Both the position numbers and the translations under genes were made by a program. Positions 25,371-27,644 of a stretch of DNA of 51,285 nucleotides are shown here, piece by piece. A model generated the notes under the pieces. That model saw only the letters and a list, made by a program, of their open reading frames with translations, did no database searches and was not told the origin of the DNA. This DNA is from a phage, in sequence record PZ445413.1; one strand, given 5' to 3'. Numbering within the stretch: the first letter of the stretch is position 1; each line of letters opens with the position of its first letter.

Positions 25371-27644
25371 TTACAGCGTTGTTGGCTTGTTGAGTAACGC
25401 CGCCACCGCCGCTTTAAGATCTGCAATTTCAGATTTCAGCTTTTCGATCTCCTCTTGTTGCTTGTCAACCTGATCACTCATTTCGTTGAATGCGTTAACT
25501 AAAAGAGCAGTAACCCCACCATAGCTAACACCTAAATATCCGGAATCTGAAATCTTGTAAACCGCTTCCGGTAAAACAGTTTGCACGTCTTGAGCTATTA
25601 CACCAGCCTCCTCCGAATAGAAAGAATATTCATCTTCATCAAGATTGTTGCGCTTAAAATAAGTGTAACCTTTTATTGATTTCACTTTTTCTTTAGCGCT
25701 TTCAATCTCTTTTAGGTTTGCTTTCAGGCGAATATCGGAAGTGTTAACCCATTGCACAGCAGACGCATAACCAGCATCGTTAAACCCATAAACAGCGCCC
25801 CTTACATTAAAATGAGCCTCGCAACCTCCAGCGCTATATCTGACAACATCAAGACCAGCAGCCCAATCGCCACCCCATCGAACAACCTTAAAGACGTTTG
25901 CGGCTGCATCGTCACCAGGTAATTCAACAAGAAGGCCGCAAGCACGATCGCGCCAACCTTCCCAACCTCCAGCGGCAATCTGACCACCAATTAGCGCATT
26001 ACCGCCGCCAGTTCTAGCCCCTGAAACTCTAACTCCGTTAGCGTTATTATCAACAGGCCATATACTTAAAAGTCCGTTAAGATGCATATTTTGCGAATCA
26101 TAACTTGCAACATTCCTACCATTGCAATGAACCTGCAAAATACCATCACCGCCCCATTTAAAACCTGTGTCAGTGTCACCAATAACAAGAGAATTACTAC
26201 CAAGAGCATTACCAATACCCCTACCTATTGTTATTGTATTGTAGTTTAATGCGTTACCTGCTTCATCAAATTGATAATAGTTTGTGTCCCCACCTTCTCT
26301 AGTTACTTGAATTGTTGCCTTTGCAACTCCACCCTGAATTTCATTATAGATTCTTGAGTACGAAATCTGAACACCTTCAGCATTCTTATTTCTCAAGTAA
26401 AGAATACCAGAATTTGCACCGTTTTTGTCATCAAGAGCAATTCCTCGAAAAACAGGTGTATCAGTTTCACCAATTCCAAAATTATTTCTAGCCTGACTTA
26501 CAGTTTGTGCGCCAGTGCCGCCAGCATTAACAGGAAGGCCAAAACCAACACCATCCTTGTTTTGGAATTGAATTTCATTGTTGTTTGCAACAACAATTCT
26601 TGTATTATCTGGAGCGGTTAAAAGAGTAAACAATTCATTTTGAATAACCCTATTTATCTGAAGGTTTACTTTTGCTTGCGTTACGTTTTCAGCTCCAGTA
26701 CCGCCAGCACCAATAGAAAGAGCAGATGTGCTGTTATCGCTATTTCTTGCAACTCGCCACTCGCCGTTATTTGCGATCCGTAATTCATAACTGGCTTGTG
26801 GGTTAGTGAATTGGTTGTAATCACCAGGTGAGCTGTGAATGGCTGGATCATTACTAATAACCGCTTGTACTCGCAAAACCTTCCTTGCAGCTTCCTTATC
26901 AGGAATATCATTAAGGTTTTGATCCTTATGCAGCAAGTTTTCAGGGTTAACCTGTTGCGCCCATTGACGCGCTTCATCACGCGCAGTCTCAGCGCCAGCC
27001 TTTGCAGAGTCGGCGGCAATCTTTGATTGTTCAGCCAGATCACGCGCCAATTCAGCCTGATCGCGAGCACCGAAAGCCTCTTGCTTAATTGCTTCCGTTT
27101 CGGTTACGGCTGAATCTTTAATCTGTTGCGTTTGCGACTTGATTGCATCAGTATCTGCTTTAATCTGGTTTGTTTCAGCGACAGCAGAATCCTTTATCTG
27201 CTGAGTGTCGTTTTTAAGTTGTTCAGTTGCAGCGCGATCAGTGGCTGTTTTTTCTGCATCACCTTTAATCTGATTAACCAAATCCTGCAAAGTTTTCAGG
27301 TCAAAGTTTTTGAAAAATTCAATAGCTTCCTCGATCTGAGTTTCTTTGCTTTGATAGTAGCGCAGAGTTTCCGCAACATCTTGCGCCAAGCCGTCAACCG
27401 TGATTGAGTCATGCAGCAAAATGATGTAATTGCTTCGCGCAATTTCAGCGCCGCCAGTTGTGATGGCGCGGATTTGTGTATCGCTGATAACTTCACTGAT
27501 CACAGCCGCTTGAAAAGGCGCATCAATAAAAAAGATTGTTGCACCAGGGCGGATTAATGAAAGTTGCTCACGCCATTTTGTATCATATCCGGTGATGTAG
27601 CCTTGAGCGTCCATAGACGCTTGTCCAGTGCGATAAATAGCCAT
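25371..27644 (-). CDS. side tail fibre protein with C-terminal intramolecular chaperone domain
   Basis: 757 aa; RBS aggaga; N-terminal tandem coiled-coil repeats ([12 protein letters not shown]); C-terminal segment resembling self-cleaving S74-type chaperone followed by a heptad coiled coil. Confidence 0.7.

Follow-up and report, generated by a model that had tools for sequence, protein, structure and literature searches.

We found that a phage lateral tail fibre gene, located in the window (the whole 51,285-nucleotide stretch of DNA analysed here, sequence record PZ445413.1), encodes a coiled-coil stalk, and that relatives differ in the length of this stalk by whole repeat units. Collectively, the evidence makes it very probable that the gene product is a homotrimeric lateral fibre composed of five parts, namely an N-terminal anchor, a coiled-coil stalk, a shaft of GGTGA modules, a presumed glycan-binding tip and a C-terminal Peptidase S74 self-chaperone. 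The coordinates of these parts are given in Table 1.

Identity and genomic setting of the fibre gene

The open reading frame starts with ATG and encodes 757 amino acids, and both the ORF list and the reading of the sequence identify it as a real gene. Its product is 100% identical to QXV83678.1, the "lateral tail fiber protein" of Escherichia phage PaulSarasin (Bas09, MZ501099, Drexlerviridae), under whose name we discuss it here. As the PaulSarasin gene is already annotated and its product has been deposited under this description, the protein is a known one, and of a known kind; the fibre belongs to an ordinary and well-understood class of proteins, with a family and a maturation mechanism that are textbook matter for phage fibres. 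The top PHROG matches are all tail fibre families (E=2e-235), and these, the exact database match and the N-terminal homology to the tailspike DpK2 (E=1e-51) bear out the preliminary description, made from the DNA letters alone, which had called the product a side tail fibre. PaulSarasin is a T1-like coliphage, and the BASEL supplement places it in Drexlerviridae / Tempevirinae / Changchunvirus, with W011D as its closest relative, FhuA as its terminal receptor and a primary receptor given as "LPS / O-antigen?".

The gene follows a regulator gene (28735-29178) and a primase gene (27731-28678), and the same gene order is found in BubbaBully, MikeNSara, JakobBernoulli and pSf-1. In agreement with the synteny used to recognize this locus, the fibre gene shares its direction of transcription with the regulator and primase genes, is oriented opposite to the helicase gene and lies near the gene for a ssDNA-binding protein. 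It is flanked by a terminator-like hairpin at either end, both on the strand of the gene, and in a search for promoters no convincing sigma-70 candidate was seen in the interval from the upstream terminator to the fibre ATG. Rfam and tRNA scans returned nothing across the whole window.

The four genes directly downstream have no Pfam match and fall only into PHROG families of unknown function, with no gp38-like gene recognizable among them. A Gly-rich downstream gene of 236 amino acids was considered as a tip-specific, gp38-like adhesin. It is without family annotation and is modelled by AF2 as a low-confidence long helix only, and because it also follows fibre genes with unrelated tips, we rejected this assignment.

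For the comparisons described below, relatives were gathered via viral contigs and tblastn, and orthologous genes were taken from 25 viral contigs and four GenBank phages, in addition to about 120 database homologues. With aa 1-260 as the query, a word-indexed search of proteins gave short or partial proteins only.

Table 1. Positions in the window of the fibre gene, its flanking signals and the parts of its product, with the basis of each assignment.
Feature	Position	Strand	Basis
Lateral (side) tail fibre gene, including stop codon	25371..27644	-	ORF list, identity to QXV83678.1, PHROG
Ribosome-binding site AGGAGA	27652..27657	-	7 nt before ATG, read from the upstream sequence
Intrinsic-terminator-like hairpin and T-run, primase/fibre gap	27701..27718	-	7-pair stem, 6 GC, TTTTTTT; consensus match only
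Intrinsic-terminator-like hairpin and T-run, 21 nt past the fibre stop	25327..25350	-	10-pair stem, 6 GC, TTTTT; consensus match only
Virion-anchor domain, aa 1-115 (beta domain 1-76 and short helices)	27300..27644	-	DpK2 homology, AF2 secondary structure
Alpha-helical coiled-coil stalk, aa 116-231	26952..27299	-	AF2, hydrophobic periodicity, DpK2 homology
25-aa repeat unit 1, aa 140-164	27153..27227	-	Offset-25 self-alignment
25-aa repeat unit 2, aa 165-189	27078..27152	-	Offset-25 self-alignment; relatives with 1 or 3
Conserved linker at the stalk end, aa 233-246	26907..26948	-	Near-invariant columns 235-247 in 64 homologues
Shaft, aa 247-395	26460..26906	-	Two ~61-aa GGTGA modules, aa 300-330 and 361-391
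Distal tip, presumed receptor-binding domain, aa 396-635	25740..26459	-	Identity to T5-like fibres; mostly beta strand (AF2)
Peptidase S74 intramolecular chaperone, aa 636-757 (122 aa)	25374..25739	-	Pfam PF13884, homology to 6F45
Predicted autocleavage site T635/S636, pair S636/K641, motif T-SDIRLK	25722..25742	-	T5 pb1 alignment
C-terminal heptad helix, aa 708-751, presumed trimeric coiled coil	25392..25523	-	AF2; a/d pattern

The five parts of the fibre

The N-terminal part of the fibre is widely shared. Residues 1-182 are homologous to the N-terminus of DpK2, the tailspike of the Klebsiella Drexlerviridae phage RAD2 (7LZJ/7VYV/7VZ3, E ~1e-51), the N-terminal ~120 amino acids are 67-98% identical to those of the 25 viral-contig loci, and the anchor domain is conserved, with matches in 1028 phage records. 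Drexlerviridae lateral fibres are described in the BASEL paper as conserved only at the far N-terminus, which likely serves virion attachment. The corresponding stretch of DpK2 is its tail-attachment end and contains an "extended triple helical bundle" that was seen by cryo-EM at low resolution only; because residues 1-190 are unmodelled in 7LZJ, there is no atomic structure of the part shared with PaulSarasin. The body of DpK2 is a beta-helix capsule depolymerase that, unlike the PaulSarasin fibre, carries no S74 chaperone.

Our own structure prediction, a full-length AF2 monomer based on a 64-sequence alignment, is poor (mean pLDDT 62, pTM 0.26, below 50 in the chaperone region) and was for this reason used for secondary structure only. 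It predicts aa 116-231 as one unbroken helix, and the hydrophobic periodicity of this stalk peaks at 3.52 residues, with a peak reached by 3 of 500 shuffles. Coiled coils rise by ~0.15 nm per residue, and the ~116-residue stalk would accordingly be roughly 17 nm long. By analogy with the triple-helical bundle of DpK2, we infer that the stalk is a trimer.

Within the stalk we found two tandem units of 25 residues, each laid out as 7+7+11. The preliminary description had reported near-identical tandem repeats and quoted a string that corresponds to aa 140-190 (window 27075-27227). The repeat is real, since the offset-25 self-alignment scores 106 compared to a maximum of 65 in 1000 composition-preserving shuffles. 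However, it consists of two copies that are identical at 15 of 25 amino acids and at 45 of 75 nucleotides (60% in both cases), and only the 13-residue core TQQIKDSAV[A/T]ET, with 12 of 13 positions matching between the units, deserves the term near-identical. The repeat is visible at the protein level only: Tandem Repeats Finder detects no array in this region of the window at the DNA level, and DNA direct-repeat seeds give short, weak pairs only. Because the copies are only 60% identical in DNA, slippage between them is unlikely to occur in PaulSarasin at present.

Beyond the linker, the shaft has an internal repeat at offset 61 (score 67) with the motif GGTGA...A[KR].N, and the number of GGTGA motifs varies, with 0, 1, 2 and 3 motifs found in 5, 56, 64 and 4 homologues, respectively. 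Over the tip and chaperone (aa ~390-720), amino-acid identity to the fibres of Salmonella phages of the T5-like kind is 80-100%. Compared in blocks of 30 residues, the same region reaches 57-97% identity with proteins from contigs of 57-60 kb, whose N-terminus is another one (PF08400). The ~100 residues that precede the cut site also occur in gp37 of some T4-like phages.

The orthologue in JakobBernoulli (Bas07, Drexlerviridae), Gp36, likewise lies after the primase gene, in the corresponding position, and has the same N-terminal anchor and stalk start. Its stalk is 29 amino acids longer with a different middle section, its shaft is different, and its tip and chaperone are 54% and 65% identical to those of the PaulSarasin fibre. 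For Gp36, a long N-terminal coiled coil, a T5-like tip and a C-terminal intramolecular chaperone have been published, and for the "T5-like" tip we refer to Humolli et al. for comparison with what is known. JakobBernoulli plates on K-12 with the O16 O-antigen (BASEL).

We found no sequence homology of the PaulSarasin tip to pb1 970-1263, the region that defines a bullet tip of the T5 pb1 type. An hhalign comparison of the 64-sequence profile with pb1(970-1396) gave a probability of 1.8%, with only the cleavage motif aligning, and in BLASTP against the same region the cleavage motif alone aligned. As both methods aligned nothing but this motif, a T5-like tip is unconfirmed by sequence, and the term would come to PaulSarasin only by way of the published prediction for its 54%-identical relative. 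A phmmer search found no PDB relative for tip residues 500-635, and Foldseek with the low-confidence model found nothing in the PDB at E<=0.001 and no pb1, the only sensible matches being S16 gp37 and the Mu tail fibre.

For the chaperone, Pfam gives a match to PF13884 (Peptidase_S74) over aa 636-696, at E=1.1e-12 and 48.4 bits against a gathering cutoff of 22; this family and is precomputed on nearly all homologues. The best solved relative of the domain is the C-terminus of S16 gp37 (6F45), which aligns over aa 635-739 with E=6e-20, from the Ser through the terminal helix; S16 gp37 is a fibre of a T4-like myovirus, the tip of which carries a separate adhesin, gp38. A 12-sequence chaperone profile reaches 6F45, the 8JOV tail fibre and the MYRF autoprocessing domain, the latter two being aligned from the SD/AD-x-R-x-K motif. 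With the endosialidase family (PF13884; K1F endoNF), the fibre has in common a Pfam match above the curated threshold and the Ser-Lys dyad. The passengers differ, a thin fibre tip in PaulSarasin compared to a sialidase beta-propeller/beta-helix spike in the endosialidases.

In T5 pb1, the bond between Thr1263 and Ser1264 is cut by Ser1264 activated by Lys1269, the chaperone comprises 133 residues with C-terminal helices forming a central triple coiled coil, and the uncleaved chaperone masks receptor binding (PMC4690869). By BLASTP, a 13-residue PaulSarasin segment aligns on T5 pb1 INTSDARLKNDVR, such that T635/S636 and K641 fall exactly on Thr1263/Ser1264 and Lys1269 of pb1 (INT/SDARLK, the slash marking the cut bond). 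The NT/SDxRLK motifs of the two proteins (4UW7/4UW8, PMC4690869) can be superimposed, the Lys standing five residues from the Ser, and no variation occurs among 64 homologues at S636, D637, I638, R639 and K641. The likeness extends to a chaperone of ~120-130 amino acids that ends in a trimerizing helix (111-135 from the Ser to the end among the homologues) and to the presumed role of a lateral fibre with O-antigen binding. In contrast, pb1 has 1396 amino acids and another N-terminus, similarity between the mature tips is undetectable by sequence, and outside the motif the two chaperones are too diverged for BLAST.

Collectively, these results uphold the view of the preliminary description that the C-terminus contains a segment resembling the intramolecular chaperone of endosialidase-type fibres, and the conserved residues suggest that this chaperone is probably self-cleaving. 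A heptad coiled coil had also been described as following the chaperone. The predicted helix at 708-751 does have L/M/I/V/F at the heptad a and d positions, but it is part of the chaperone domain and not an extra module: because the S16 gp37 homology includes it and T5 pb1 has a counterpart, we regard it as the chaperone's own trimerization helix. The AF2 monomer has pLDDT below 50 for aa 628-723, and its three-dimensional arrangement is unusable for seeking the beta-hairpin "tentacle" with which such chaperones embrace the passenger domain.

Stalk length and mosaicism among relatives

Repeat detection combined with comparison of related genomes, as had been proposed for checking the repeat, reveals that the number of units differs and stalk length with it. 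MikeNSara has one copy of the 25-residue unit, PaulSarasin two and BubbaBully three, and most close relatives, including W011D, carry two. The extra copy in BubbaBully is a 75-nt tandem duplication with 97% matches, and given these matches the duplication is recent. Citrobacter and Salmonella relatives, and one viral-contig locus (L020), have one to three extra 11-residue units (AVxETQQIKDx) instead. These observations agree with the earlier suggestion that copy number may vary between relatives and thereby set fibre length.

Measured from TEQLK to PENLLHK, the stalk spans 51-127 amino acids across ~100 homologues, with distances of 51, 65, 66, 69, 73, 83, 88, 91, 94, 98, 105, 116, 119, 123 and 127. 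Two clean series can be recognized, 94/105/116/127 with a step of 11 and 69/94/119 with a step of 25, as well as differences of 21 and 28. Every clean step that can be compared between otherwise collinear stalks (11, 21, 25 and 28 amino acids) is a sum of heptads and hendecads, and because of this the coiled-coil register is kept.

The fibre gene is also a mosaic. Against W011D, the closest sequenced genome, the stretch that begins 300 nt upstream and extends to about nt 480 of the fibre gene is 95-100% identical in DNA; identity is 68-90% from there on, 0-82% between nt 720 (~aa 240) and nt 1860, and 83-98% from about nt 1860 (~aa 620) to ~250 nt past the stop codon. The W011D fibre, of 691 amino acids, has the same two 25-residue units as PaulSarasin, with the central ~380 amino acids (shaft and tip) swapped for a divergent cassette. 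The final helix occurs in at least two alleles. This pattern matches the statement in BASEL that conservation is limited to the far N-terminus. The positions of the identity changes suggest that the tip cassette recombines at conserved joints, of which the linker is a likely one and the SDIRLK cleavage site would be the other.

Alternative readings and a working model

The best PDB matches of aa 1-182 are depolymerases (7LZJ/7VYV/7VZ3), and one could therefore read the PaulSarasin protein as a tailspike enzyme that degrades capsule or O-antigen, as do those Drexlerviridae proteins of Klebsiella phages that have the N-terminus in common with it. We consider this highly improbable, because the similarity ends at aa 182 and covers the anchor and part of the coil only, because Pfam gives no beta-helix, lyase or hydrolase family match, and because the remainder matches fibre families as well as T5-like and T4-like fibre tips; moreover, DpK2 lacks the S74 chaperone present here. 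We give almost no credence to the reading that this fibre is the terminal, FhuA-binding receptor-binding protein instead of an accessory side fibre. While FhuA is the terminal receptor of PaulSarasin and the gene is its most obvious fibre gene, BASEL maps terminal-receptor specificity in this group of siphoviruses to a separate receptor-binding-protein locus and counts the gene studied here as the lateral fibre locus. The same tip is furthermore found in T5-like phages, which mostly use BtuB.

Alternatives also exist for the parts of a lateral fibre. The absence of a Tandem Repeats Finder report in the window and the 60% identity of the copies, in protein and in DNA, would fit a repeat that is mere compositional periodicity of a coiled coil without any duplication, the length differences among relatives then being unrelated indels. 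This is very unlikely: none of the 1000 shuffles reaches the offset-25 score, the stalks of relatives are spaced by exactly one unit (69, 94 and 119 amino acids), and the 75-nt tandem duplication in BubbaBully is clearly one of this unit. There is also a small chance that the S74-like domain is kept in the mature fibre, either catalytically silent or as a trimerization foot, with the coiled-coil end forming the distal tip. Uncleaved C-terminal autochaperones do exist, such as the fin of the P22 tailspike (PMC4690869), and cleavage in PaulSarasin is predicted from its sequence. Nevertheless, Ser636, Lys641 and the SDIRLK motif are invariant in the 64 homologues and align exactly on the proven T5 site, and in T5 an attached chaperone blocks receptor binding (PMC4690869), which argues against a retained domain.

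We thus favour the five-part lateral fibre with a released chaperone, and propose that it works as follows. The beta-rich aa 1-115 would fix the fibre to the tail tip, and the stalk would be a trimeric coiled coil built from 7- and 11-residue units, including the two 25-residue copies. During maturation, the C-terminal helices of the chaperone may trimerize first and template the folding of the tip, after which Ser636, activated by Lys641, would cut between T635 and S636, releasing the chaperone and unmasking the tip. The tip (aa 396-635) would then bind a surface glycan (LPS or O-antigen) reversibly, ahead of the engagement of FhuA by a separate, central tail-tip protein. The glycan receptor is suggested by analogy: for the lateral fibres of T5-like phages, O-antigen is a non-essential primary receptor to which binding is reversible, and the BASEL authors propose such a primary-receptor role of the O-antigen for Drexlerviridae lateral fibres too. 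Between relatives, the stalk gains or loses whole 7-, 11- and 25-residue units, which changes fibre length with the coiled-coil register intact, and recombination exchanges the middle of the gene.

It is tempting to go further and hypothesize, tentatively and with more doubt than confidence, that the stalk is an evolvable molecular ruler, its reach being tuned to the depth of the O-antigen or capsule independently of the swappable tip. Under this hypothesis, units of 7, 11 and 25 residues would recombine unequally, so that the coiled coil grows or shrinks by whole quanta of ~1.6 nm per 11 and ~3.7 nm per 25 amino acids, and the shaft would likewise add zero to three GGTGA modules. Quantized variation and one recent duplication are observed, whereas selection on stalk length is conjecture.

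The importance of these results beyond good annotation is small, and the recombination joints could guide the engineering of fibre chimeras for host-range redesign. The new point is a modest and descriptive one: in these lateral fibres, changes of stalk length are confined to units that preserve the register (11, 21, 25 and 28 amino acids), and the shaft varies in whole modules of ~61 amino acids.

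Transcription signals and the gene beyond the fibre

Strong terminator-like hairpins stand on both sides of the fibre gene, on its own strand, and no convincing sigma-70 promoter was found in the 56-nt gap ahead of its ATG. Read-through or a phage-specific late promoter are candidate routes for its transcription. The whole 51 kb window yielded neither tRNA genes nor, at gathering thresholds, any Rfam family match.

Downstream of the fibre gene a 236-aa protein is encoded. It combines a Gly-rich N-terminus (GGLIGSWFGNGFGG) with a long predicted helix (residues 60-222), and its CCC at 154-156, C186 and C-terminal NFKLPTPPTPP(TGCC) are invariant. 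The protein falls in PHROG 9288, a family of unknown function, and has no match in Pfam; all 194 homologues are annotated 'hypothetical'. These homologues are found on T1-like contigs, on 53-62 kb siphophage contigs and on contigs of Aeromonas, Yersinia and Hafnia phages. Because the gene follows fibre genes with unrelated tips, the protein is not specific to the fibre tip.

In JakobBernoulli (viral-contig locus L028, 5906-6610), the homologous gene is annotated as two CDS, bas07_0035/0034, one of which is named 'putative sugar-binding protein', and despite this annotation tblastn gives a single match covering 236 aa.

Features of the fibre gene and its surroundings
Feature	Position	Strand	Remark
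N-terminal beta domain of fibre, aa 1-76	27417-27644	(-)	
Shaft module, aa 300-330	26655-26747	(-)	GGTGA...A[KR].N motif
Shaft module, aa 361-391	26472-26564	(-)	GGTGA...A[KR].N motif
236-aa protein gene	24489-25199	(-)	directly beyond the fibre gene's terminator
Terminator-like hairpin	25327-25350	(-)	strong; one side of fibre gene
Terminator-like hairpin	27701-27718	(-)	strong; other side of fibre gene

The fibre N-terminus: fold and database labels

Using Foldseek, we found that about 71 residues of the fibre model align to the beta-barrel at the N-terminus of F1-ATPase beta subunits, with a probability of 1.0 and an rmsd of about 3.2 A, but with an E of about 0.03 and 13% identity. The query region is absent from the Foldseek output, and the matching residues are presumably the N-terminal beta domain of the fibre. 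The likeness is probably no more than that between small barrels, a common kind of fold.

Fibre N-termini of the T1-like kind, which share 64-91% identity with that of PaulSarasin, were also observed in GenBank entries MG065643-MG065681 (labelled 'Campylobacter phage A120, A121, E6...'), OR786094 ('Streptococcus phage MBBL140') and P0017 ('Staphylococcus epidermidis'), labels that probably denote wrong hosts or coliphage sequence present as a contaminant. In BlueShadow (OL539462), the fibre gene itself is labelled 'putative DNA primase'.

Modularity of the shaft and replacement of the tip

The fibre carries a second internal repeat, composed of two ~61-aa shaft modules whose shared motif is widespread in fibres. 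As homologues carry 0, 1, 2 or 3 copies of the module, the shaft, too, is modular in length.

Compared with W011D, the closest sequenced genome, replacement within the fibre gene, at 25371-27644, is confined to the middle (about nt 720-1860), and the chaperone-coding end together with the downstream DNA is 83-98% identical. The chaperone and the tip that it folds are therefore sometimes inherited separately.
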